From assembly GCA_048938385.1 (NCBI GenBank), contig JBHLMG010000004.1, forward strand, positions 101,342 through 126,397: DNA of 25,056 nucleotides, read 5' to 3'. The position numbers were made by a program, and so were the translations under genes. Below, one piece after another: positions 1,765-13,631 of the stretch; positions within the stretch are counted from its first letter, which is position 1, and each line of letters begins with the position of its first letter. The notes beneath the pieces were generated by a model. It made no database searches and was not told where the DNA came from. It saw only the letters and a list, made by a program, of their open reading frames with translations. This stretch comes from Promethearchaeota archaeon (lineage in GTDB: Archaea > Asgardarchaeota > Hermodarchaeia > Hermodarchaeales > Hermodarchaeaceae).

Positions 1765-3045
1765 CTACCTATTGCCTTCAATGATCGACTTGGCTAATGC
1801 TACCACTTCTTCAACGCTCAAGTCCGCTTTTAGATGACTGAACTCAGTCTTACATTGGTCGAACCGCTTCAAGATCTCCTCTTTATCTTTCTGTGCATGA
1901 TACTGCTTAACCGCTTCAGCTACTTCACGAATTTGAGTCTTAGTAGCCAGAACGCTGTTCTCACGCAAAATGTATTCGATGAGGTGACGCCCAGCAAATT
2001 TCCCCAAGTAGAAGCTGCGTTGTCGACCCACGAGTTCTGGCGGAATTGGCTCATAAGATAAGGAATGTGCCAAAGTTCCATGGACATGAATCCCCGAGCC
2101 ATGGTTAAACGCGTTCTGTCCCACAATGGCCTTATGCACAGGAATCGGGATTGCGAAACTGCGTTCTACTAACTTGGATAGCTCAAAGAGCTTTTTCGTC
2201 TTGATGCCAGTCTTTATTCCGTACAAGGTTTCTAGAGCCATTACCACTTCTTCCAACGCCGCATTACCCGCCCGTTCGCCAAAGCCATTCACGCATACAT
2301 GGGGGTAGGTAGCCCCCATCTCTACAGCAGCCAGCGTATTTGCGGTGGCTAGACCAAAATCATTGTGACAATGAATACCCAAAGCAAATGACTTCTTCGT
2401 GGCTTCTGTTAGCCTCTCTTTGACCTCTTTAACGATATATTGTATGACCCCAGGTCGACAAAATCCCACTGTATCCGCAATCACAATCGTATCCGCCCCT
2501 GCTTCAATGGAGGCCTTCGATATCTGCACAACTTTGTCCAAGTCACTACGTGTGGCATCTTCTACAACATACGCCACATTAGCTCCATGATCGACAGCAT
2601 AAGCGGTACACTCTGTGAGGTTATCGATGGCTTCTGCTAAGGTCATTTTGAGTTGATATTCTAATCGTAACTTGCTTGGCGCAATGAAAATAGGGATGAC
2701 TTCTGCTCCGGTATCAATACAAGCTTGGACATCGCCAAGCACCGCACGAGCAGGTGCGGCAAGTTTTGCGTTTTGAAATCCTTCCTTCGAGAGGCGCCGG
2801 ATAGTTTCTCGTTCTTCTTTTGAAACCATAGGAAATCCCGCTGCAATCACCGCAACCCCAATCTCATCCATTAACTTAGCAATCTCGATTTTCTCATCTA
2901 CCGTAAGGAGAGTTCCTGCTGTCTGTTCCCCATCACGCAAGGTTTCATCCCAAATCCATACACGATTCGGTGTGGATGGTAAACGCAATTCGTTGCGGCG
3001 GTTGTGATTCACGATGAGCCCGGCGGCTTCTAATTCGCTAGTCAT
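1765..3045 (-). CDS. Homocitrate synthase / isopropylmalate / citramalate synthase family (DRE-TIM metallolyase) lacking the LeuA regulatory domain (AksA/NifV-like)
   Basis: DETLRDGEQ, HCHNDFGLATAN, GFGERAGNA, HGSGIHVHG and YEPIPPELVG motifs; 426 aa. Confidence 0.9.
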   Translation of the reverse strand: MTSELEAAGLIVNHNRRNELRLPSTPNRVWIWDETLRDGEQTAGTLLTVDEKIEIAKLMDEIGVAVIAAGFPMVSKEERETIRRLSKEGFQNAKLAAPARAVLGDVQACIDTGAEVIPIFIAPSKLRLEYQLKMTLAEAIDNLTECTAYAVDHGANVAYVVEDATRSDLDKVVQISKASIEAGADTIVIADTVGFCRPGVIQYIVKEVKERLTEATKKSFALGIHCHNDFGLATANTLAAVEMGATYPHVCVNGFGERAGNAALEEVVMALETLYGIKTGIKTKKLFELSKLVERSFAIPIPVHKAIVGQNAFNHGSGIHVHGTLAHSLSYEPIPPELVGRQRSFYLGKFAGRHLIEYILRENSVLATKTQIREVAEAVKQYHAQKDKEEILKRFDQCKTEFSHLKADLSVEEVVALAKSIIEGNR

Positions 3046-3205
3046 GAATGTCGACCCCTAATGATCGCTATTTCAGCCTGCGGCTTCTTCATCCTTTATC
3101 TTTTTTGAAGCACGACTTTTCAACGCGCTGTAGACCCCACATTGCGAATGCTTCTTAAGCAAAACTCACTAAACGAGCCAATATAACCAGTTTATTTCGA
3201 ACTCG

Positions 3206-4588
3206 GTGACTGGGATGGCTGCGAAAACACCTAATCAACCTCTGATCTCGCTCTTCTCCGCTAGCTCCGTGGTCCTTATTGGCGCCAGTGCAAATCCCCA
3301 GTCCTTCGGTTTTCAAGTAGCCCGAGCCCTCATCCGAAATTTCAAGGGCTCAATCAGTTATGTGAGCGCTACCGAGGCTAAGGTGTTAGGAGACCCTACT
3401 TATGCAACCATTGCTGAAGTGCCAAAGGGGAACCATCTTTGGATTATTGCCACGGTCACCAAAAATTTTGATGAAACTCTACAATTAATCGGGCAACGGA
3501 ATCCCCTTGCAATCCTTATACTAGTCGAATTACCTTCCGAACAGCAAGAAGGTGTGAGGAAGGTCATCACTTCCCTTTCCTGCCCCGTGATTGGTCCCCG
3601 CAGCGCCGGCTTCTATGATTCTACGACGCGCCTTGATATGTTTCCGCTTCCTCCCGAAGTACTCGGACGACCACCAAAGGGATCCGCTGGCGTAATCACT
3701 GATAACCGCGATGTCGCCTTCGGACTCCTCGAACAACTCAGCAATTACCGCTGTGGAGTCTCAAGATTTGTTGACCTAGGCGAAACCTTTGGAACGCGAG
3801 AAGCTGACGCTCTCTCATTTTTCGCTCAAGATGACGCTACAAAGATCGTCCTCCTTGGAACTGGTCAGGTATCCAATCTACGGGCATTCAGACAAGCTGT
3901 CAACAAAGTGCATGGCGCAAACAAGCCAGTTATCGTATCGCTTTTCCCGGAGGAAATTACAGCCCGCCTAGGACTTCACCGTCGAACAGGAACTACCGTT
4001 ACTCCCCTCACCAAAGATATCGCACAACAAACTGGCTTAATGGTCACTTCGTCATGGGACCACGCAGTTGACTTGACCCTTCTCTGCCAACACCAATCGC
4101 TCCCACAAGGGCCCAATGTTGCAGCCATCTCAAATTTTGGCGCCTACTGTGTCTATGTTGCAAGTGCCTTGCATACTTCAAAACTCAAGCTAGCCAACCT
4201 TGCCCCAAATACTAAGCGAGCCCTGAACGAAAATCTCCCCCCCTATTGTCGGTGTGAAAACCCCATCTGTCTATACACTAACGCTGATGAAGTCCGGCTC
4301 GATACAGCCCTGCGCCTAATCCTTCCCGATCCAAACACTCACAGCCTCATCCTCAGCCTTCTCCCCCAATCACCCAACCTTGACCCCGACTACCTCTATG
4401 TTATGCTCCGACAGCGCCTCAGAACCCTTGCCACTCCCAAACCAATCATCGCTGTAATCCCGGCTAGAGAACGCGAAAACCTTCTAGTTCAAAGCCTTGA
4501 ACATCTCCACATCCCTGTCTACTCCAACCACTACCGTGCACTGGGTGCCTTAGAAAACGCCTACCGTCTCTCAAAACTCCATGATTAA
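3206..4588 (+). CDS. Degenerate paralogue of ADP-forming acyl-CoA synthetase alpha subunit (probable pseudo-enzyme); ATG 3215 is an alternative start
   Basis: Collinear with 5015..6418 (IGAS CoA-binding loop, GVSRFVDLG, NPI motif), but GPNC reads GPRS, SQSG reads TDNR, YMEG reads GTGQ and SHTG reads RRTG. Confidence 0.8.
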   Translation: MTGMAAKTPNQPLISLFSASSVVLIGASANPQSFGFQVARALIRNFKGSISYVSATEAKVLGDPTYATIAEVPKGNHLWIIATVTKNFDETLQLIGQRNPLAILILVELPSEQQEGVRKVITSLSCPVIGPRSAGFYDSTTRLDMFPLPPEVLGRPPKGSAGVITDNRDVAFGLLEQLSNYRCGVSRFVDLGETFGTREADALSFFAQDDATKIVLLGTGQVSNLRAFRQAVNKVHGANKPVIVSLFPEEITARLGLHRRTGTTVTPLTKDIAQQTGLMVTSSWDHAVDLTLLCQHQSLPQGPNVAAISNFGAYCVYVASALHTSKLKLANLAPNTKRALNENLPPYCRCENPICLYTNADEVRLDTALRLILPDPNTHSLILSLLPQSPNLDPDYLYVMLRQRLRTLATPKPIIAVIPARERENLLVQSLEHLHIPVYSNHYRALGALENAYRLSKLHD

Positions 4589-4714
4589 TGAGTGGCTTAG
4601 TAACGCGCGATCACTATCCTTCCAGCTTCATGGCAGAAAGACCACTCATCTATCTCGGCAAGAACACTTATCTGCTAAAACATGCCGCATAACCTCCAAC
4701 AAGGTGAATTTATC

Positions 4715-4972
4715 ATGTACAAAGCCTATGTCCTCATCAAAGTCGCACCCCAACAGGAAGACGCCATTCTACGAGAGATTTCTAAGCATCCCACAATATC
4801 TGAATCTCACAAGCTCTTTGGAATGTACGATCTTATTGTCGAAATCGAGCGAAAGGGCATGCGTGAAATCATGCAATCCATCTCAAAAATTCGTGCGATT
4901 AAAGGCGTACTAGACACGATAACCAACCTCGTTGCTGACTTTGAGATGGATGTACACGGAGCACCAATCTGA
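4715..4972 (+). CDS. Stand-alone Lrp/AsnC ligand-binding (RAM) domain protein, no HTH
   Basis: KAYVLIKV...LFGMYDLIVEI...IRAIKGVLDTIT; aaggtga SD before ATG 4715 (ORF track starts at 4682). Confidence 0.85.
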   Translation: MYKAYVLIKVAPQQEDAILREISKHPTISESHKLFGMYDLIVEIERKGMREIMQSISKIRAIKGVLDTITNLVADFEMDVHGAPI

Positions 4973-5014
4973 TTGTCAGGATAAGGAACGGAGGTCAGTT
5001 GAGGGACGCATCGC

Positions 5015-6418
5015 ATGGCATCAGACCTGGACCCTTTTTTTAATCCTCAAACCGTTGCGGTGGTCGGTGCCTCGGCACGCAAAACGAGTGTTGGCGGTGT
5101 GATTTTCCGCAACTTCCTGAAACCGACATTTAAGGGTGTAGCTTACCCTATCAATCCCCGCGCCACTGAGGTCTTAGGTATCCCTTGCTACGAAAAAGTG
5201 TCAGCGATTCCTCAACCCGTCGACCTTGTAGTTATCGCTGTCCCGGCAGGCATCGTTCCCAACATCATGCTTGACTGTGAAACTAAAGGAGTCAAAGCTG
5301 TCATCATCATAAGCGGAGGATTCAAAGAAATCGGATCTGAAGGTGCCTATCTCGAAGAGCAAGTCGTGGAAATCGCCAAACGGAGTGGTATTCGCGTCAT
5401 TGGTCCCAATTGCGTTGGTATTTATGACACCAATACTGGCGTAGATACGACCTTTCTTCCTGCCTCGCGCATGGGACGTCCAGGGAAAGGTTACATCAGC
5501 TTCATCAGCCAAAGTGGTGCCTTTGCAGCAGCTATCCTCGACATGAACGCTTTATCTGGGTTAGGAGTCAGTCGGGTTATCAGTTTTGGGAACAAAGCTG
5601 ATGTGAATGAAATTGACCTTATTAAGTACCTCGGAAACGACCCTGAAACGCGTGTTATTGTAGAATATATGGAAGGGCTATCACCGAGTACAGGGGGAAC
5701 ATACCTGACCACTGCTAAGGATGTAACCCAGCAAAAGCCTCTCATCGTGGTCAAAGCGGGGCGGTCTTCCCGTGGATCTGCCGCTGCTGCAAGTCATACG
5801 GGAGCCCTCGCGGGTGATGCTAAACTCTATGACTTTGCTTTTCATCAAGCTGGTATCTTAACTGCGCGTGATTTTGAAGATGGGTTCGAGATGGCGAAAA
5901 CCCTAGCGTCGCAGCCACCAGCTCAAGGTAATCGTGTGCTCATTGTCACCGATGCTGGTGGCGCGGGTGTTATGACAGTCGACGCTTGTGAAGCGCTTGG
6001 GTTAACTGTTCCCGAACCTCCCCAAGATAAAAAGAAAATTCTCCGCGCAGCCTTTCCTGGGTATTGCAGTGTCCACAATCCCATTGACTTAACAGGGGAC
6101 ACCGATGCTGAACGTTATCAAATCGCTCTAGAAACGCTGTTAGGAACACCTCATTATGATGCCGCTATTGTCATCGTCATGATGCAAGTTCCCCTTCTCG
6201 ATTTAGACATCGTCGACCGCCTCATGGCTATTGTCCGTAAATTCAACAAACCTCTCGTTGCGTTAACAGCTGGTGGACGATTCACCATGAAGGGGGCTCG
6301 ACTCCTCGAAGAAGCTGGGATTCCAGCTCTCCCCACTCCCGCTCGAGCTGCAAAGGCGCTGTGGGCTCTCGTTGAGTACGGTCAGCGCATAAAGAAGCGG
6401 CATTCCCGTTCTGATTAA
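5015..6418 (+). CDS. acdA: Acetate/acyl-CoA ligase (ADP-forming) alpha subunit
   Basis: VAVVGAS, GPNCVG, SQSGAF, FGNKAD, YMEG, phospho-His loop ASHTGALAG, GGAGV and NPIDLTGD all intact. Confidence 0.93.
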   Translation: MASDLDPFFNPQTVAVVGASARKTSVGGVIFRNFLKPTFKGVAYPINPRATEVLGIPCYEKVSAIPQPVDLVVIAVPAGIVPNIMLDCETKGVKAVIIISGGFKEIGSEGAYLEEQVVEIAKRSGIRVIGPNCVGIYDTNTGVDTTFLPASRMGRPGKGYISFISQSGAFAAAILDMNALSGLGVSRVISFGNKADVNEIDLIKYLGNDPETRVIVEYMEGLSPSTGGTYLTTAKDVTQQKPLIVVKAGRSSRGSAAAASHTGALAGDAKLYDFAFHQAGILTARDFEDGFEMAKTLASQPPAQGNRVLIVTDAGGAGVMTVDACEALGLTVPEPPQDKKKILRAAFPGYCSVHNPIDLTGDTDAERYQIALETLLGTPHYDAAIVIVMMQVPLLDLDIVDRLMAIVRKFNKPLVALTAGGRFTMKGARLLEEAGIPALPTPARAAKALWALVEYGQRIKKRHSRSD

Positions 6419-6530
6419 GTGAAAGGACGTCTTTGTTGGCTTCAAGGAGTTTTGGACGATGCAATTGTTTTTAATCGCATGAGAATACCCTTTTCCCACG
6501 GTTTCCTCGCGCTAGTCGAGGTGTCCTATA

Positions 6531-7691
6531 GTGATCAATGTAAGCATTGTTGGTGCCGGACAGACAAGGTTTGGACGACACGACGATTACGATTTACGCG
6601 AACTTTTTGCTAAGGCAGCTCACGAAGCCCTTGAAGAGGCAGGCTTGGCTCCGAAGGATGTAGATGCTGCGTTCATCGGGAACTTATCTGCTGACCAGTT
6701 TAACCGTCAAACCCACATTGCTCCCCTAATGGCTGATTTTGCAGGAATGAAAGGCATTCCTGTCACCAAATGCGAAGCCGCATGCGCATCTTCAGCAACA
6801 GCTCTTCGTGCAGCTATTCTAGCCATCGAATCTGGGCACCATGAGGTTGTCATGGCGGCAGGTGTTGAAAAAATGACTGACTTACCCACACCGGGAGTCA
6901 TTGAAACTCTAGCCATGGCTGCCGATCAAGTCTTTGAAGCCCAGCCAGGTATTACATTTCCCGGAATATTTGCAGTCCTTGCCGTAGCACACATGGCTAA
7001 ATATGGAACCACTAAAGAGCAACTAGCCGCTGTGGCTGTGAAAAATCATGCTAATGCGGTTCACAACCCCTTGGCGCAATATCAAAAGGAAATCACTATG
7101 GAAAAAGCCCTTTCTTCAAGGATGGTCGCATGGCCTCTTGGACTCTTCGATTGCTCTCCTATCACTGATGGTGCCGCGGCTGTTATTCTGACTCGAACAA
7201 AAAAGGCTCGTAAATTTACAGATACGCCAGTAAAGATCATCGCGTCAGCACAAGCCAACGACACGATGAACCTCTGTGATCGTACTGACCTTACTAGTCT
7301 CTATGCCGCGCGAACCGCAGCTCACCGAGCCTACCAACAGGCTAGAATCGGACCAAAGGACATTGATTTTGCCGAAGTTCACGACTGTTTCACCATCGCC
7401 GAAATCATTGCTACTGAAGACCTCGGGTTCTTTAAACCTGGCCAAGGTGGACCTGCTGTTGAAGATGGACGCACCCAAATCCATGGTGAAGTAGCGATCA
7501 ACACCAGTGGAGGTCTAAAAGCGAAAGGACATCCTGTTGGTGCTACGGGAGTCGCCCAAATCATCGAAGCTTATCATCAATTGCGCGATGAAGCTGGAAA
7601 ACGCCAAGTTGACGATCCAAACTATGGGCTTTTGCACAATGTGGGCGGTACCGGTGCGACCTGTGCAATTCACATATGTGAGCGGTGGTGA
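6531..7691 (+). CDS. Archaeal/SCP2-type thiolase (acetyl-CoA acetyltransferase family)
   Basis: EAACASS (catalytic Cys), HDCF, SGGLKAKGHPVGATG and HNVGG; gaggtg SD and GTG start. Confidence 0.93.
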   Translation: MINVSIVGAGQTRFGRHDDYDLRELFAKAAHEALEEAGLAPKDVDAAFIGNLSADQFNRQTHIAPLMADFAGMKGIPVTKCEAACASSATALRAAILAIESGHHEVVMAAGVEKMTDLPTPGVIETLAMAADQVFEAQPGITFPGIFAVLAVAHMAKYGTTKEQLAAVAVKNHANAVHNPLAQYQKEITMEKALSSRMVAWPLGLFDCSPITDGAAAVILTRTKKARKFTDTPVKIIASAQANDTMNLCDRTDLTSLYAARTAAHRAYQQARIGPKDIDFAEVHDCFTIAEIIATEDLGFFKPGQGGPAVEDGRTQIHGEVAINTSGGLKAKGHPVGATGVAQIIEAYHQLRDEAGKRQVDDPNYGLLHNVGGTGATCAIHICERW

Positions 7692-8101
7692 TGATCGTGA
7701 GTGACGAGACGACGATAAAGAACTATTTCAAGCTGATTAACGATGGCAAGTTATGTGCCGCTGAATGTTCTAGCTGCCATGAACTCGTTTTGCCTCCTCG
7801 CCTATTCTGTCCAAACTGTAACAGTAAGACAACGCATTGGAAAACACTCAGTGGGAAGGGTAGGCTTAGTTCCTTCACCGTGATTCATGTTGCTGGAACC
7901 TCCTACGCTGAGGATGTTCCCTACATTGTCGCAATTGTTCAACTAGAAGAAGGGCCTTCAATTTGTGCCCGGTTAGTGGGTGTCGATCCCCTGAAGCCAG
8001 AAGAGATTCATGTCGGAGATTCCGTTATGGCTGGTTTTGAAGAGCTTCCAGGATCCACCCCTGAGGAATCGACGAAGCGGTTAGTTTTTCATCCTGCCTA
8101 G
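7691..8101 (+). CDS. DUF35 Zn-ribbon + OB-fold protein (thiolase partner)
   Basis: CSSC...PPRLFCPNC, G.L.SFTVI and PYIVAIVQLEEG; TGATG stop/start overlap with the thiolase. Confidence 0.92.
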   Translation: MIVSDETTIKNYFKLINDGKLCAAECSSCHELVLPPRLFCPNCNSKTTHWKTLSGKGRLSSFTVIHVAGTSYAEDVPYIVAIVQLEEGPSICARLVGVDPLKPEEIHVGDSVMAGFEELPGSTPEESTKRLVFHPA

Positions 8102-8106
8102 TCAGG

Positions 8107-9432
8107 TCATTTTTTGACTCCGAGGAATCGAAGTGCAGACACTGCGAGAACCTTGGTGACCTTGATTAAGGCATCAATGGAGATGCTTTCATCAGCGACA
8201 TGAGCTTGCGTCATGTTGCCTGGACCGTATACTACGCTCGAGGTAAGTCCGGCTCGACGCAGAAGTCGTGCGTCGGTTGCGTAAGGCACGAGAAAGTACA
8301 CAGTCGGTCCCATAATGTCCTTTGAGGTATTGTACAAGGTAGTGACCATTTCGTTTTGCTGATAGTCTGGTATCGAATTCCCTGCAAAGGCTTCAATGAT
8401 TTCCACATCCACAATATCTATCAAACCGCACTCAGTTGCGAGGGTGCGGACGAAGTTAACTATTTCTTGTGGGTGTTGACCAGGTAATATTCTGAAATCG
8501 ATTTGGACTTCGCACCGATCAGGAACGACATTAGCGGCAGCGCCACCCTTGATAACTCCGATGTTCATTGTAGTAGTTGTTAACGCTTCTAATCCTGCTG
8601 AAAGTGGATTTCGTCCACCTTGAAACTGTCCCTCCATAAGTGATAGTTCAACTCCAAGTGCTTTGGCAAATTGTGTCAAAATGGCGTTTCGGCTGATGGG
8701 AGGTGTTGTAGTGGGAAGTGGTGTGTGCTGAAGAGCTTGGAGAAGTTGCATCATCAAGTCAATCGCGTTTCGCCCAGCAGCCGGAATACTTCCATGCGCT
8801 TTTTCCCCCTTGGTTGTAATTCGCAACCATACCGGCCCTTTCTCACCAATGTTTACAGCATACCCAAGCTGACCAAGCCCAGATGGTTCTGGAATGATTG
8901 CCGCATCAGCTTTGATTTTCTCCCAGGCATTCTCGATACACCAGGTCGTGCCTAATTGACCTTGCCGCTCCTCATCTCCCACGGCGTTTAGAATGAGCGA
9001 CCCGTTCAAGGGGATGTCTAGATCTCGTAAAGCACACATTGCTATAGTCATTGCGGCCACGCCTCCCTTCATATCCATCGCCCCCCTTCCATAGATTAAA
9101 TCATCACGAACTTCTGCCGTAAAAGGATCAACTGTCCAGTCTTCACCAGGTGGCACCACATCTACATGTCCATTAAACAGGAGTCGTCGTTCCCCCTTCT
9201 TCACCTGCCAGGTAGCAATTAGGTTCTCGATGTTTGGGTGAGAGGATAGGTACTCGGTAGGAATATTCCGCTTTTCTAAGGTCTTTCCAACTCGGTGTGC
9301 AACTTCGGCTTCTCCTCGAGTGTCCCGATCCCAACTAGGAATGCGAATCAGGTCTTGACATAACTCGACTAACTCGTCGGCTAGGATGTTAACCTGCTCC
9401 ACGACTTGTTGGTCCCATTCAGTAAGTTTCAT
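8107..9432 (-). CDS. M20-family metallohydrolase (ArgE/DapE-like deacylase)
   Basis: FNGHVDVVP, GRGAMDMKGG, GDEE, PEP, HGS and AHVADE metal-ligand motifs; GTG 9438 is an alternative start. Confidence 0.92.
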   Translation of the reverse strand: MKLTEWDQQVVEQVNILADELVELCQDLIRIPSWDRDTRGEAEVAHRVGKTLEKRNIPTEYLSSHPNIENLIATWQVKKGERRLLFNGHVDVVPPGEDWTVDPFTAEVRDDLIYGRGAMDMKGGVAAMTIAMCALRDLDIPLNGSLILNAVGDEERQGQLGTTWCIENAWEKIKADAAIIPEPSGLGQLGYAVNIGEKGPVWLRITTKGEKAHGSIPAAGRNAIDLMMQLLQALQHTPLPTTTPPISRNAILTQFAKALGVELSLMEGQFQGGRNPLSAGLEALTTTTMNIGVIKGGAAANVVPDRCEVQIDFRILPGQHPQEIVNFVRTLATECGLIDIVDVEIIEAFAGNSIPDYQQNEMVTTLYNTSKDIMGPTVYFLVPYATDARLLRRAGLTSSVVYGPGNMTQAHVADESISIDALIKVTKVLAVSALRFLGVKK

Positions 9433-9559
9433 GTCCACAACCTCGCCAACTCTTCGTTTTTGGCAATGAAAAAGTTTGAGTGTGTTGAGTAGGCACCAAA
9501 GGTCTTATACTCTTCTTCCTCCTCTTCTCCACTAGCGTAGGTGGCGTCAAAGCGTGACT

Positions 9560-10537
9560 ATGGATTCGAAAACAGAACGACGGTTTTGGGAAATTGCAGA
9601 ACACAGCCAGTTTGCCATGCTTCTCGACATTCTGACTCCCAAACCAGGAAATGTCCATCGCTACCAGGACCATCCCGATACCAATATCTTACACTTCGCT
9701 GCAAGCATCACTCGTCTTGGGCACCCCTTATATGAAGCCGCGAAATGGGGTTCTCGGCAAAGGTCCTCCAGTTCCGAACCTTCACAACTGGGAAAATTAC
9801 TCAAGCACGCCACTCAAGCAGCCATGCAACCGCATGACAAAAATACCCTTCTCGGCACTATTCTCCTTCTCGTTCCCTTGGCTGCCGCCGCTGGTTGTGA
9901 TGTTCCGCAGGAACGCCCCTCTCTCATTACTCTTCGTCAAAATCTTGCTCGCATCTTACATAATACCACAGTCGAAGATGCAGTAGAACTAGTCCGTGCC
10001 CTACAGATTGCCAATCCTGGTGGGGCGATTCCCAAAACCACTGAGTGGTCTTCTAAGTCCAAAGCCTTTGACTTTCAATCCCCCCACACAGTAGACCTCA
10101 TCCGTCGTCAACGCCTTAGACTACTAGACCTCCAAGCTCTTGCCACATCTTATGATGCGATTGCACAAGAGTACACATCTGAATTCGCTTATACCTTTCA
10201 AAGTCTTTATCCACAATTCGACAAAGCTCTGAACCGCTATCAACACCTCGATGACGCTGTATTAATTACCTTTCTTTGGGCATTAAGTCAACGACCTGAT
10301 AGTTTCATTCAACGCAAAGCAGGAACAGAAGCCGCTGAAAAGGTCAGACAGCAAGCAATCAAATTTCATCTACGGGTCCTTAAAATGCCTGCAAATCGTT
10401 GGGTAGCTGAACTCGCACCATTTGATGAAGCGTTACGGGCAGAAGGCTCAAAACTTAACCCAGGAACCACTGCTGATCTCCTCTCTGCCGCCATCTTTTT
10501 GGCTCTTCATTTGGGGAACATCAAAGCGATACTTTAG
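9560..10537 (+). CDS. citG: Archaeal-type CitG / triphosphoribosyl-dephospho-CoA synthase family protein
   Basis: PKPGNVHR, NTLLG, DSFIQRKAG and LNPGTTADL motifs; GTG 9554 is an alternative start. Confidence 0.88.
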   Translation: MDSKTERRFWEIAEHSQFAMLLDILTPKPGNVHRYQDHPDTNILHFAASITRLGHPLYEAAKWGSRQRSSSSEPSQLGKLLKHATQAAMQPHDKNTLLGTILLLVPLAAAAGCDVPQERPSLITLRQNLARILHNTTVEDAVELVRALQIANPGGAIPKTTEWSSKSKAFDFQSPHTVDLIRRQRLRLLDLQALATSYDAIAQEYTSEFAYTFQSLYPQFDKALNRYQHLDDAVLITFLWALSQRPDSFIQRKAGTEAAEKVRQQAIKFHLRVLKMPANRWVAELAPFDEALRAEGSKLNPGTTADLLSAAIFLALHLGNIKAIL

Positions 10538-10604
10538 TAAAACAATATTAGTACAAAATTAGAAAGAATTAGTGAACAATTGTCTTTTGTTCAGAGTGGA
10601 GAAA

Positions 10605-10883
10605 ATGGCCTACTCAGGTTCTGTTGCTGCGGCTTCATCTGCTGAATATACTGCTACAGCGTCAGCTCTTTGCCTACCTGCACCCTATGTGAAGGTGTTG
10701 CCTGAGGATTTCGTCATCTTGGTGGAGAATCTGTTCACTATCGTCCATATATGGAAAGGTTCTCGCCATCTTTACTTTGGACGATTTCTGGACCGCTTTG
10801 TCGTGTATACTCAAACCCGCGAACCTTTGAAAATTCCTGTTGATCTGGAAGGAGATAAAATCACGAAAACAATCCGCTTGTAA
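10605..10883 (+). CDS. Small hypothetical protein, paralogue of 10898..11158
   Basis: ATG 10605 after a ggag SD; Ala-rich N-terminus, then VKVLPEDF...IVH...HLY...YT...PL...KI...RL. Confidence 0.7.
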   Translation: MAYSGSVAAASSAEYTATASALCLPAPYVKVLPEDFVILVENLFTIVHIWKGSRHLYFGRFLDRFVVYTQTREPLKIPVDLEGDKITKTIRL

Positions 10884-10897
10884 TGGAGGATGAATAA

Positions 10898-11158
10898 ATG
10901 AAATTTCAAGGCGTACTTCCTGCTTCTCGAGTTACAATAGGGGGATTAGCAATTAAGCTAGATCCGTACTTGTTCCAGCAATTCGTTGTAAGGGAGGAGC
11001 TCCCCATAGTGCATGGAATGATAGGGATTATTTCGAAAAACCATGTGTATTTGACCGTTCATGACGGGATGACTTTCTATACCAAAGTCCAATATCCTTT
11101 ATCGGGATTCCAGGTGGTCGTTGAAGCAGAGAAGATTACAAGTTATGTGCGATTGTAG
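10898..11158 (+). CDS. Small hypothetical protein, paralogue of 10605..10883
   Basis: ggagg SD; IKLDPYLF...IVH...HVY...FYT...PL...EKI...RL. Confidence 0.75.
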   Translation: MKFQGVLPASRVTIGGLAIKLDPYLFQQFVVREELPIVHGMIGIISKNHVYLTVHDGMTFYTKVQYPLSGFQVVVEAEKITSYVRL

Positions 11159-11173
11159 CTAAAGTACTTCGGG

Positions 11174-12658
11174 CTAAGGTTCCCACTTGAATGGGTGCTT
11201 AGCAAACTCTTTATCGCGGAGCAGTTCTTCAATGTTAGGTCGCCCCTCGATCGCCCGTCGGAGGGCATGGCGCATAGCCTTATAGTTGTTGATCAGGATG
11301 CGTCGGCGATCCACCGCGGTTGGATGTACGAAAACTGTTGCCACGATGACCAGCTGGTCTACAGCGTCTTTAGGAATGAATCCTTCCTCAACCGTGTCTA
11401 TAATTGCTTTTGCACAACCTGCCTGAGCTGGACCCCCAAACAGGCTAGCTTGGTGCATACTCCGATTCGCCACCGTTGGAACCAAGAGTGTTTCGGGTTT
11501 AACCATGAGGTTAGGTTCAAGAATTGCAAGTAAGGGTTCCATACGCTCTTTAGGAGCTGCTTTTGCTTGGGCAAAAGCGAAACCGACAGGCCCGTCTTTT
11601 CGTCCAATCATGAGGTCAATGTGTGCGACTTCTGCGCCGCTTCCTGCCAAGCCTTCACCAACCTTCAGTGAGAAATCCTTTACTTGGTCGGGAGTAAAAC
11701 CAAATACACCGAATCGTGCCTGGAGGGGTTTCTTTGGCTCGACCTCAATTTGAACTTCCTTCCGCTGGATCTTTCCGAGTTTTTCAAGTTCGATGCGAAT
11801 CTCTTCACGATTCTCGTAGGTTAACACGCCACCAAAGGTTAAGGGTAGCCGAGGGTTCCCAACAGGAATGCCCATCATTTTTAATCCAGCTTTCACCCCA
11901 GCGGCTCCGGATCCTACGATGAGTCGGGTAAGTTTCTGAACTTTGAGTTGAAGCTCTACGGCTTCAGCGAATTTACCTGATTTAACTTTGTTGAGCATAT
12001 CAACCCAGATATCACCGATTAATTGAGCGCTGGCTAAAATACAACCGGCTGCTCCTGAGGCTAGGGCGGGGAAAACGACCTCGTCGTGACCAACTAAGAC
12101 TTTGATTTTCGAACCAACCTTTTCCAATACCGCTAAGATGAGTTTGAGTTGTCCGCTTGAATCTTTCAACCCTGCGATGTTATCTAGCTCTGCGAGGTCC
12201 TCGACGATCTGCCAGGGAATTTCTAGCCCAGTACACTGGGGGATGTTGTATAAGAGAATGGGAATACCAACTTCGTTTAAGAGGCGATAGTGCTCATAAA
12301 GGCCCCGAAGTGTTGGGCGAAGAAAATATGGGGTGACCACAAGACATGCATCAGCACCAGCTTTCTTGGCATGTTTGACGAGTTCTAGAGTTGTTTTAGT
12401 ACTCGTGGCCCCAGCTCCGGCGATTACAGGAACCTTCCCTGCTGCTTCTTCAATTGTAATTTCAATGATTTTTTTGTGTTCACTAAGCGTCAGGTTCGGG
12501 AATTCTCCCGTCGTTCCTGCAGGAACGAGACCTGTTACTCCGAGCGTGTCAATACAATGGCGAATCAGCTGGCGGAAAGCTGGTTCATCAACTTTGGATT
12601 CGTCTTTGGTGAATGGTGTAATTAATGCTGGGTTTACACCACCTGGTTCATAACCCAT
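11174..12658 (-). CDS. Fusion of a DapA/NAL-family class-I aldolase (aa ~1-296) and formaldehyde-activating enzyme Fae (aa ~330-494)
   Basis: N-terminal PALITPF, GTTGE, LYNIP and GLKDSSG (Schiff-base Lys); C-terminal VGEG..G.G.EVAHIDL.IG, GPAQ, VFVHP, NY and HPF (Fae signature). Confidence 0.92.
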   Translation of the reverse strand: MGYEPGGVNPALITPFTKDESKVDEPAFRQLIRHCIDTLGVTGLVPAGTTGEFPNLTLSEHKKIIEITIEEAAGKVPVIAGAGATSTKTTLELVKHAKKAGADACLVVTPYFLRPTLRGLYEHYRLLNEVGIPILLYNIPQCTGLEIPWQIVEDLAELDNIAGLKDSSGQLKLILAVLEKVGSKIKVLVGHDEVVFPALASGAAGCILASAQLIGDIWVDMLNKVKSGKFAEAVELQLKVQKLTRLIVGSGAAGVKAGLKMMGIPVGNPRLPLTFGGVLTYENREEIRIELEKLGKIQRKEVQIEVEPKKPLQARFGVFGFTPDQVKDFSLKVGEGLAGSGAEVAHIDLMIGRKDGPVGFAFAQAKAAPKERMEPLLAILEPNLMVKPETLLVPTVANRSMHQASLFGGPAQAGCAKAIIDTVEEGFIPKDAVDQLVIVATVFVHPTAVDRRRILINNYKAMRHALRRAIEGRPNIEELLRDKEFAKHPFKWEP

Positions 12659-12683: not shown

Positions 12684-13631
12684 TTAGGGTTGAGGAATGG
12701 CAAGGTCCTTTGGTCCAAGCTTTGAGAAGTTGGCTTCAGGATAGTTATCTTGGATGATGTTTCGCACGATTTCAGCCCACTTGACTTTTTCACGAGCTAG
12801 AAACTTTAGCCCTTCAACGGAGGACCAGGGCGTATAAAGCGCCATACTTGGACCTGGTTCGAATTTGTAATAAACGGGTTGGACACATCGAGTGATCTCA
12901 GGGGCGTCGTAGAATCGGTTGAAACCACCAAAACTGGGCATTAACATAATGTGGATGTCAATGGGGAAGTTAGTGGCTTGACGAATGGCGGCTAATTGTG
13001 GGACCGACATATCAGCGACGGGGTTGAAACTGCCTGCACCTAGTTGTTCAAGCAGTTTTCCTCCTGCTGGCGATGCATGACCAGCAAAAATGCTCACTTT
13101 GAAGGTGATGTCTTTGGGGATTTCTCCGATTTCTTTCAACTTATTCAGTGTCCAGAGCAGTCCTTCGTCAATGACTAAGAATCCGCGAAAGCCTAGCTCA
13201 ATTCCTCGTTGTATGTCGGTGATCACTTCAACGAGTTTGTCGGCTCCACGAAATCGCATACCCGAAAGGATCCCGTCTGGTGTGGCAATTTGGCGACCAA
13301 TATCCCAGCTGACCCGAGGACCGGGAGTTAAGATGACTTCCATCTTGGCATCGTGTGCCATTTGGGCAAATTTTCGGAGTTCTTTATCGTCAAGAAGAGT
13401 GGCACCCATAACCACGCTAATGAGGCGGTGACAGGGAATGTCTCGTTTTTCTGACTCGTCAATCAATGCCTCCAAGACTTCGGGGCGTTCAACACCAGAA
13501 ATTTCAATACGATAGCCAGCACCGTCTGGAAACCGCTTCTCGCTCGTTGGCAAATCGTAAGCATCTTGTCCGGGTAATCCAATTTTTTCTAAGGCTCTAC
13601 GGACCTTTTCATATGATTTCAGGCTAACCAT
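12684..13631 (-). CDS. Uncharacterised TIM-barrel protein ('peptidase U32-like' annotation family)
   Basis: LPTSEKRFPDGAGYRIEI, GPRVSWDIG, GFRGFLVIDEGLL, GAGSFNP and PVYYK; gagggt SD before ATG 13631; no U32 Fe-S Cys cluster; 25 nt upstream of the aldolase-Fae gene. Confidence 0.7.
   Translation of the reverse strand: MVSLKSYEKVRRALEKIGLPGQDAYDLPTSEKRFPDGAGYRIEISGVERPEVLEALIDESEKRDIPCHRLISVVMGATLLDDKELRKFAQMAHDAKMEVILTPGPRVSWDIGRQIATPDGILSGMRFRGADKLVEVITDIQRGIELGFRGFLVIDEGLLWTLNKLKEIGEIPKDITFKVSIFAGHASPAGGKLLEQLGAGSFNPVADMSVPQLAAIRQATNFPIDIHIMLMPSFGGFNRFYDAPEITRCVQPVYYKFEPGPSMALYTPWSSVEGLKFLAREKVKWAEIVRNIIQDNYPEANFSKLGPKDLAIPQP

Follow-up and report, generated by a model that had tools for sequence, protein, structure and literature searches.

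What does an archaeal protein do that joins a complete aldolase barrel of the DHDPS/NAL type to a complete formaldehyde-activating enzyme (Fae)? The question is raised by a gene in a window of 25,056 nucleotides (the whole stretch of DNA analyzed here) from the genome of a Promethearchaeota archaeon of the family Hermodarchaeaceae (assembly GCA_048938385.1, contig JBHLMG010000004.1, positions 101,342 to 126,397 of the forward strand). Public copies of this fusion that bear any functional name are all called “4-hydroxy-tetrahydrodipicolinate synthase” (DHDPS, DapA), and literature searches returned no published description of a DHDPS–Fae fusion. Judged from its sequence and from the gene content of the genomes that carry it, the protein almost certainly does not perform the DapA step of lysine biosynthesis, a conclusion that is well supported. 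We give an even chance to the reading that it is a bifunctional enzyme, which would interconvert pyruvate plus methylene-tetrahydromethanopterin (methylene-H4MPT) and 4-hydroxy-2-oxobutanoate (HOB) plus H4MPT and would, in this archaeon, most likely run towards HOB and homoserine. The gene and its parts are the following:

11174..12658, minus strand: whole fusion gene, 494 amino acids, ATG start, stop included (from the list of open reading frames and their translations)
11837..12643, minus strand: DHDPS/NAL barrel, residues 6-274 (Pfam PF00701, 4e-70)
11663..11836, minus strand: C-terminal helices of the barrel and linker, residues 275-332, between the two Pfam envelopes and of conserved length in fused homologues
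11189..11662, minus strand: Fae domain, residues 333-490 (Pfam PF08714, 1e-54)

A preliminary description of this DNA had proposed that one open reading frame holds both domains in full, and the Pfam and NCBIfam matches bear this out. The Fae domain covers positions 1-158 of the 159 positions of PF08714 with a score of 185 bits (cut-off 27) and reaches 190.9 bits against TIGR03126 (cut-off 118). The barrel scores 230.4 bits against the dapA model TIGR00674, above the curated cut-off of 206.15, which speaks for the database name. The fusion stays under every cut-off of the other DHDPS/NAL subfamilies, among them NanA, KDG aldolase, HpaI-like proteins, and KdgD (TIGR02313, 171 bits against a cut-off of 397; NF003164, 156 against 281; TIGR00683, 145 against 382; NF040954, 109 against 390; TIGR03249, 105 against 374).

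The pyruvate machinery of the barrel is intact. GTTGE at residues 48-52, Tyr137 in LYNIP, and Lys165 in GLKDSSG were checked at the codon level (the codon of the Schiff-base Lys165 is 12164-12166), and Thr49/Thr50, Tyr137, and Lys165 align with Thr44, Tyr133, and Lys161 (E. coli numbering) of solved DHDPSs, with which the barrel shares 37-42% identity. In the same alignments to PDB entries, Cys142 (codon 12233-12235; YNIPQCT vs YNIPGRS) occupies the position of DapA Arg138, which binds the carboxylate of aspartate semialdehyde (ASA) in E. coli, and Phe112 (TPYFLRP vs TPYYNKP) occupies that of Tyr107. The Fae domain, aligned with Fae of M. extorquens (1y5y), retains AHIDL (His346, codon 11621-11623) and GPAQ but carries Thr395 (codon 11474-11476) in place of the canonical Lys, reading PTVA where 1y5y has NKVT and the Fae-Hps protein of the same genome has PKVT. 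The retained pyruvate and Fae motifs and the replacement of both Arg138 and the Fae lysine had been noted before from the letters alone, and all of them stand in the structure-based alignments.

Most of these features are family traits. A homologue search returned at least 120 full-length fused homologues, and 120 of them form the basis of all residue counts. The homologues are 77-89% identical to the window protein in Promethearchaeota/Hermodarchaeota and about 60% identical in Bathyarchaeia, and the closest records carry the name Hermodarchaeota. Their Arg138 column holds Cys in 101 sequences, Val in 16, Thr in 2, Ala in 1, and Arg in none; the Gln that precedes it is invariant, as are the Schiff-base Lys, Tyr, and Thr residues of the barrel. 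By contrast, the change from PYY to PYF, also pointed out in the preliminary description, is present in the window protein but does not characterize the family, because the Tyr107 position is Tyr in 117 sequences and Phe in only 3. In the Fae domain, His346, Asp348, and GPAQ are invariant, and the AHIDL and GPAQ motifs as a whole are invariant or nearly so.

Species-representative genomes were scanned for fused relatives, which occur among archaea in Bathyarchaeia, in Loki-, Hermod-, Heimdall-, and Thor-type Asgard lineages, and in Thermoplasmata, and among bacteria in Anaerolineae/Chloroflexota, Myxococcota, Thermodesulfobacteriota, and Spirochaetota. An assembly artifact is ruled out by the number of full-length fused homologues and by the recurrence of the stretch in several sediment metagenome assemblies; these records point to a fusion that is real, old, and widespread. 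In a tree of 153 barrel domains (FastTree only, with Shimodaira–Hasegawa-like supports), 33 of 34 fused barrels fall into one clade with a support of 99, which also includes three short unfused sequences; the remaining fused barrel, from a protein of 600 amino acids, is placed elsewhere. None of the 72 standalone sequences that have Arg at position 138 falls within the fused clade.

The fusion gene is present as a tandem pair in Thor-type archaea, in Thermoplasmata, in part of the Bathyarchaeia, and in almost every bacterial carrier. The first copy is devoid of the AHxDL His motif and keeps GPxQ, the second keeps AHxDL and is devoid of GPAQ, and the single-copy form in the window retains both Fae motifs. 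Because the Fae site is located between subunits, the complementary loss of motifs looks like the signature of a heteromer, in which the tandem paralogues would share their Fae sites. As a rule, DHDPS is tetrameric, whereas Fae forms pentamers.

The gene content of the host genome (2.48 Mb, 90% complete) adds to the case against a role in lysine biosynthesis. The fusion is its sole DHDPS-family gene; there is no separate dapA of the Arg138 type, a fact that, like the score and the uniform names, would favor a function as DapA. No dapB was found in the host genome or in 14 genomes of the same genus, and neither asd nor a gene for homoserine dehydrogenase was found in the host genome, in searches that recovered asd in 14/14, homoserine dehydrogenase in 14/14, and dapB in 11/14 reference genomes used as controls. 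A related genome (G023) encodes an adjacent canonical dapA–dapB pair and, elsewhere, a separate fusion that is 53% identical to that in the window. The protein resembles DapA (TIGR00674, E. coli DHDPS) in its fold, its Schiff-base Lys/Tyr/Thr set, its sequence identity, and its score but differs in the Cys that replaces Arg, the additional Fae domain, and the separate clade. The missing Arg, the separate clade, the negative searches for dapB and asd, and the gene pair in G023 together leave little room for a lysine role, in agreement with the earlier verdict that the protein is not a DHDPS.

The same genome provides what a Fae domain requires. The H4MPT pathway, on which the preliminary description relied, is represented by its marker Mch (401 bits) and by a canonical Fae-Hps of 403 amino acids (NF009833, 598 bits; G000:C23:94657-95133; locus L002, ORF 1462-2673), so the Fae domain of the fusion has its cofactor. 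The host genome therefore holds two Fae domains, in two different fusions.

Joining Fae chemistry to a pyruvate Schiff-base aldolase suggests a reversible condensation of pyruvate and a one-carbon (C1) unit to a 4-hydroxy-2-oxoacid, the simplest of which is HOB, the keto acid of homoserine. The barrel and the Fae domain would jointly make up a hydroxymethyl transferase or lyase in which formaldehyde is an intermediate held by the enzyme. In the host archaeon, in which neither asd nor homoserine dehydrogenase was found, HOB formation would be the most likely direction, and transamination of HOB would yield homoserine, from which threonine and methionine take their C4 skeleton. A presumably co-transcribed TIM-barrel protein of orphan status, encoded next to the fusion, may act one step before or after it. 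We infer formaldehyde as the acceptor, HOB as the product, the passage of formaldehyde between the domains, and the direction of the reaction. In engineered E. coli, HOB is successfully made from pyruvate and formaldehyde and then transaminated to homoserine (PMC8879981).

The link between pyruvate, formaldehyde, HOB, and homoserine had been put forward in the preliminary description. It gains indirect support from the near-mutual exclusion of the fusion and homoserine dehydrogenase (Homoserine_dh), from neighboring genes for amino acid enzymes, and from homoserine dehydrogenase operons that contain a possible homologue of a partner gene; the bacterial carriers mostly encode Homoserine_dh and are without Mch, as detailed below.

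In two lineages of archaea, genomes with the fusion rarely encode homoserine dehydrogenase as well. Among 121 evenly sampled Asgard genomes (each at least 80% complete), 55 encode the fusion and 49 Homoserine_dh; 8 have both, 47 only the fusion, 41 only the dehydrogenase, and 25 neither (odds ratio 0.10), which places Homoserine_dh in 8/55 genomes with the fusion vs 41/66 without. The same alternation is replicated in 81 genomes of Bathyarchaeia (each at least 85% complete), where 24 encode the fusion, 49 Homoserine_dh, and 3 both (odds ratio 0.034), so that the dehydrogenase occurs in 3/24 genomes with the fusion vs 46/57 without. In the Loki-like family f9, asd is constant (21/21 genomes), while 10 genomes have only the fusion, 6 only the dehydrogenase, 3 both, and 2 neither, an alternation that is seen even inside one genus; because asd does not vary, it is the homoserine step and not the supply of ASA that alternates with the fusion in this family. 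The replication in Bathyarchaeia and the constancy of asd in f9 are new here. Homoserine_dh was also not found in five inspected fusion carriers, of which four have contigs titled “chromosome” (three Bathyarchaeia and one member of Thermoplasmata) and one is a 1.37-Mb contig genome of Bathyarchaeia.

Further evidence comes from the gene directly upstream of the fusion:

12684..13631, minus strand (ORF extends to 13673): partner gene, orphan TIM-barrel protein of 315 amino acids, counted from the conserved Met

The gap between the partner and the fusion measures 25 nt and contains GGAG upstream of the fusion ATG; the two genes are probably co-transcribed. The partner adjoins the fusion in Hermod-type archaea, in other Asgard families (f1, f8, f17, and f20; within about 2 kb in f13), and in Bathyarchaeia, Thermoplasmata, Chloroflexota, and Myxococcota, and is the only neighbor that is conserved across phyla; the remaining neighborhoods are not conserved between classes. 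Copies from this archaeon and from Chloroflexota or Myxococcota are 48-91% identical and share many invariant Arg, Asp, Glu, His, and Lys residues. The protein has no Pfam or NCBIfam match. Its AlphaFold2 model is a TIM barrel (pLDDT 82), and it is nearest to U32-peptidase-like clusters, yet it lacks their Fe-S cysteines. Its fold matches are generic TIM barrels, namely CutC (Z 15.2), pyruvate kinase (14.9), class II fructose-bisphosphate aldolase (14.4), YdjI (14.2), MfnB (14.1), and the U32 peptidase Mk0906 (13.4). A prediction of the complex between fusion and partner, run without controls, scored 0.00 and speaks neither for nor against binding. In one genome, a divergent paralogue of this U32-like protein is located between GATase_4 genes, a context that is uninformative.

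Loki-type archaea and the majority of Bathyarchaeia have another orphan protein of about 428 amino acids (UNK430) encoded in this upstream slot; its TIM barrel is preceded by a helical domain, and it was not found in the host genome. Comparison of the U32-like partner with UNK430 by hhalign gave E values of 5e-5 and 2e-4 over 224 columns (probability 66% and 48%), and the two partner forms are possibly distant homologues. A fold search with UNK430 yielded Z scores that were all at most 11.7, and homologue searches with both forms returned only entries named “hypothetical protein”. The presence of a conserved orphan partner marks at least one further enzyme.

The contexts of UNK430 away from the fusion concern the same part of metabolism. 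Two Asgard families without the fusion, f4 and f21, have UNK430 as the first gene of a conserved operon of four; behind it come the genes for a class I/II aminotransferase, homoserine dehydrogenase, and aldehyde:ferredoxin oxidoreductase (AOR), an arrangement that is also new here. This operon could encode an ATP-free route from aspartate via ASA to homoserine, with reduction of the acid by AOR, or its reverse. It was recorded at eight loci in eight genomes, and the families concerned are mostly without an archaeal-type asd. In Thor-type genomes, UNK430 follows a gene for the S-component of an ECF transporter and is divergent from a ThrC-like PALP–PadR fusion gene. At the six Thor-type loci recorded, the threonine-synthase-like PALP protein of about 498 amino acids is fused to a PadR DNA-binding domain, and the aldolase–Fae pair lies elsewhere in the genome.

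Several observations weigh against a homoserine-supplying role. The genomes compared are not independent, and a table of family majorities in Asgard (3/6/11/5) gives only p = 0.12. Eleven archaeal genomes hold both the fusion and Homoserine_dh. Among the bacterial genomes with tandem fusions, 4/5 encode Homoserine_dh and only 1/5 encodes Mch; that the bacterial carriers tested mostly keep the dehydrogenase and are without Mch is a further new observation, and it implies for these bacteria a different role, a different cofactor, or a difference in both. Support for a common origin of the two partner forms is no more than moderate (probability 48-66%). The change from Lys to Thr in the (N/P)KVT motif of Fae, which is found in 120/120 sequences, is a feature that this reading does not account for. 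The equilibrium of the Fae reaction favors methylene-H4MPT, so that catabolism would be easier than synthesis, and chemically the reverse, catabolic reaction is equally possible; neither the acceptor aldehyde nor the 2-oxoacid donor is readable from the sequence. A recognized homoserine kinase was not found in the host genome, and ThrC had to be rejected as a discriminator, with ThrC-like genes in 104/121 Asgard genomes whatever their status with respect to the fusion and homoserine dehydrogenase.

The missing kinase carries no weight of its own, because GHMP-type ThrB occurs in only 10/121 Asgard genomes. A match to TIGR02535, considered as a candidate homoserine kinase in the host, was rejected since it represents a phosphoglycerate mutase. 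The host genome encodes two threonine synthase equivalogs (G000:C29:833-1807 and G000:C23:225698-226702; loci L011 and L012), while searches for asd, homoserine dehydrogenase, and a recognized homoserine kinase in it were negative. In four genomes of Chloroflexota and Myxococcota, a tandem pair is present and Mch was not found; the Fae-like domains of such Mch-less bacterial carriers may use a carrier other than H4MPT.

If the homoserine-supplying role were generalized, Bathyarchaeia, many Asgard lineages, and some Thermoplasmata would make homoserine, and from it threonine and methionine, from pyruvate and the C1 unit of methylene-H4MPT instead of aspartate, and the partner superfamily would be an undescribed enzyme of homoserine metabolism. 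The C1 pool of the Wood-Ljungdahl pathway would then feed directly into the synthesis of C4 amino acids in some of the most abundant archaea of sediments. We offer this wider proposition tentatively, as a possibility that is more doubtful than the reaction itself.

The main rival to the favored homoserine-supply role is a catabolic lyase, an unlikely but serious alternative. Such an enzyme would cleave HOB, or another 2-oxo-4-hydroxy acid with a CH2OH end, to pyruvate and formaldehyde, and Fae would trap the latter as methylene-H4MPT, destined for oxidation or the Wood-Ljungdahl pathway; the substrate would be furnished by the partner TIM barrel, an amino acid dehydrogenase, or a transaminase. 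The logic is the same as that of Fae-Hps, which is encoded in the same genome, and the direction is thermodynamically easier, with the Fae equilibrium on the side of formaldehyde capture. A lyase also fits better to the bacterial carriers, which coexist with Homoserine_dh and some of which have loci with a catabolic appearance, where the fusion is found beside genes for an amino acid dehydrogenase, MFS transporters, and flavin or nitroreductase proteins; a UxaA-type dehydratase adjoins one fusion in Bathyarchaeia. It leaves unexplained why the fusion and homoserine dehydrogenase alternate in two groups of archaea, and, with neither Hom nor asd found in the host, a source of HOB is not evident there; of the neighborhoods, only the partner is conserved.

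Less probable still is the same chemistry with another substrate, either a different 2-oxoacid (for example, 2-oxobutanoate or 2-oxoisovalerate, which would give a product of the ketopantoate type) or a larger aldehyde supplied by the partner enzyme, which would render the link to homoserine correlative. DHDPS/NAL barrels accept many substrates, and the substitution of Arg by Cys or Val does not reveal the specificity; the pyruvate-binding residues, by contrast, are unchanged, and the recurrent genomic contexts concern metabolism of the aspartate/homoserine/threonine type. A role in ketopantoate formation is not needed, because canonical PanB is present in the host and in 22/26 relatives; the idea that the fusion replaces PanB in an H4MPT-dependent organism was rejected for this reason.

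A non-catalytic Fae-like domain, serving as an oligomerization scaffold or as a pterin-sensing regulator of an aldolase unrelated to formaldehyde, is very improbable. It would account for the loss of one Fae motif from each tandem paralogue, for the lack of Mch in most bacterial carriers tested, and for the replacement of the conserved Lys by Thr, but not for the near-invariance of AHIDL and GPAQ in the 120 sequences of the single-copy form or for a score above the cut-off of the Fae equivalog; the losses in the tandem copies are complementary, as expected of a shared inter-subunit site that is still in use. That the protein is, as its database names say, a working DapA that happens to carry a Fae domain is scarcely credible, given the family-wide lack of the ASA-binding Arg and the genomic evidence set out above.

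The favored reading, an H4MPT-linked HOB aldolase, can be compared with three known systems. Fae-Hps (NF009833) of methanogens and other archaea likewise joins Fae to an aldolase-type enzyme that makes or uses free formaldehyde in an H4MPT organism. It differs in that Fae is N-terminal there and C-terminal in the fusion, in that the second domain of the fusion is a class I Schiff-base DHDPS/NAL barrel and not Hps, in the co-substrate, which would be pyruvate and not ribulose 5-phosphate, and in the Lys that is Thr in the fusion. The fusion reaches only 160 bits against NF009833 (cut-off 274), through profile positions 2-161 of the Fae part only, and is not a Fae-Hps. It would be a new instance of Fae joined to a formaldehyde-handling aldolase. 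PanB (PF02548) resembles the proposed reaction in the transfer of a hydroxymethyl group from a methylene-pterin to C3 of a 2-oxoacid but has an unrelated fold, a single domain, and a metal-dependent enolization, and occurs in the host genome in its own right. The HOB aldolase of the synthetic homoserine cycle catalyzes a reaction identical to that proposed here, likewise followed by transamination to homoserine (E. coli RhmA; PMC8879981). RhmA is a class II metal aldolase whose promiscuity is exploited in an engineered strain, and the review of this cycle describes HOB as non-native (PMC8879981); the fusion, by contrast, would be a dedicated natural enzyme of class I, putatively supplied with C1 units from H4MPT by its fused Fae.

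Thousands of these genes are labeled “4-hydroxy-tetrahydrodipicolinate synthase” in public databases, and, because of the DapA label, metabolic reconstructions of Bathyarchaeia and Asgard archaea credit these organisms with a lysine step and miss a C1-linked reaction. If the favored reading is true, the fusion would represent a natural formaldehyde-condensing route to homoserine, hitherto only engineered with promiscuous enzymes and here wired to H4MPT, and would explain how free-living archaea with genomes of 1.5-2.7 Mb cope without homoserine dehydrogenase. Synthetic methylotrophy would also gain an HOB aldolase of class I that is dedicated to this reaction.

The wider surroundings of the fusion vary among carriers. 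In two loci of Myxococcota, a Glu/Leu-type amino acid dehydrogenase gene lies between the fusion pair and the partner. An unfused member of the fused clade is followed, at a distance of 12 bp, by a ThrC-like gene. In one locus of Bathyarchaeia, the gene that comes after the fusion is Ser/Thr dehydratase-like, and genes for S-adenosylhomocysteine (SAH) hydrolase, a CysK/CBS-like protein, and ThrC occur within 6 kb of the fusion in Anaerolineales. These neighbors point to the metabolism of hydroxy-amino acids. The other features of the window are:

9554-10537, plus strand: CitG-family gene (PF01874, 6e-61), far under the cut-offs of the CitG/MdcB equivalogs
10572-10883 and 10898-11158, plus strand: two small ORFs with similar C-terminal ends and no family, within 10538-11173
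8107..9438, minus strand: M20-family metallopeptidase or deacylase (Pfam Peptidase_M20 and M20_dimer), a loose recurrent neighbor
1765-3045 (minus strand), 3206-6418 (plus strand), and 6531-8101 (plus strand): distal genes, whose order is kept in a relative with 85% identity (L006)

The CitG-like gene is convergent with the fusion, and its position is kept in Hermod-type relatives such as L006. CitG-like genes are part of H4MPT-linked gene sets in methylotrophs, although a literature search for this association gave no paper. About 636 bp (10538-11173) separate it from the end of the fusion gene, compared with 48 bp in L006, and the GC content dips to 0.44 in the 1-kb interval 10001-11000. Genes of the M20 family are found within about 4 kb of the fusion in Hermod-type, Promethearchaeota, Thor-type, and Bathyarchaeia loci. 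The distal stretch (1765-8101) comprises a gene of the homocitrate/isopropylmalate synthase type (HMGL-like and HCS_D2), two genes similar to ADP-forming acyl-CoA synthetases, and a thiolase with a partner of the OB-fold/zinc-ribbon (DUF35) type.

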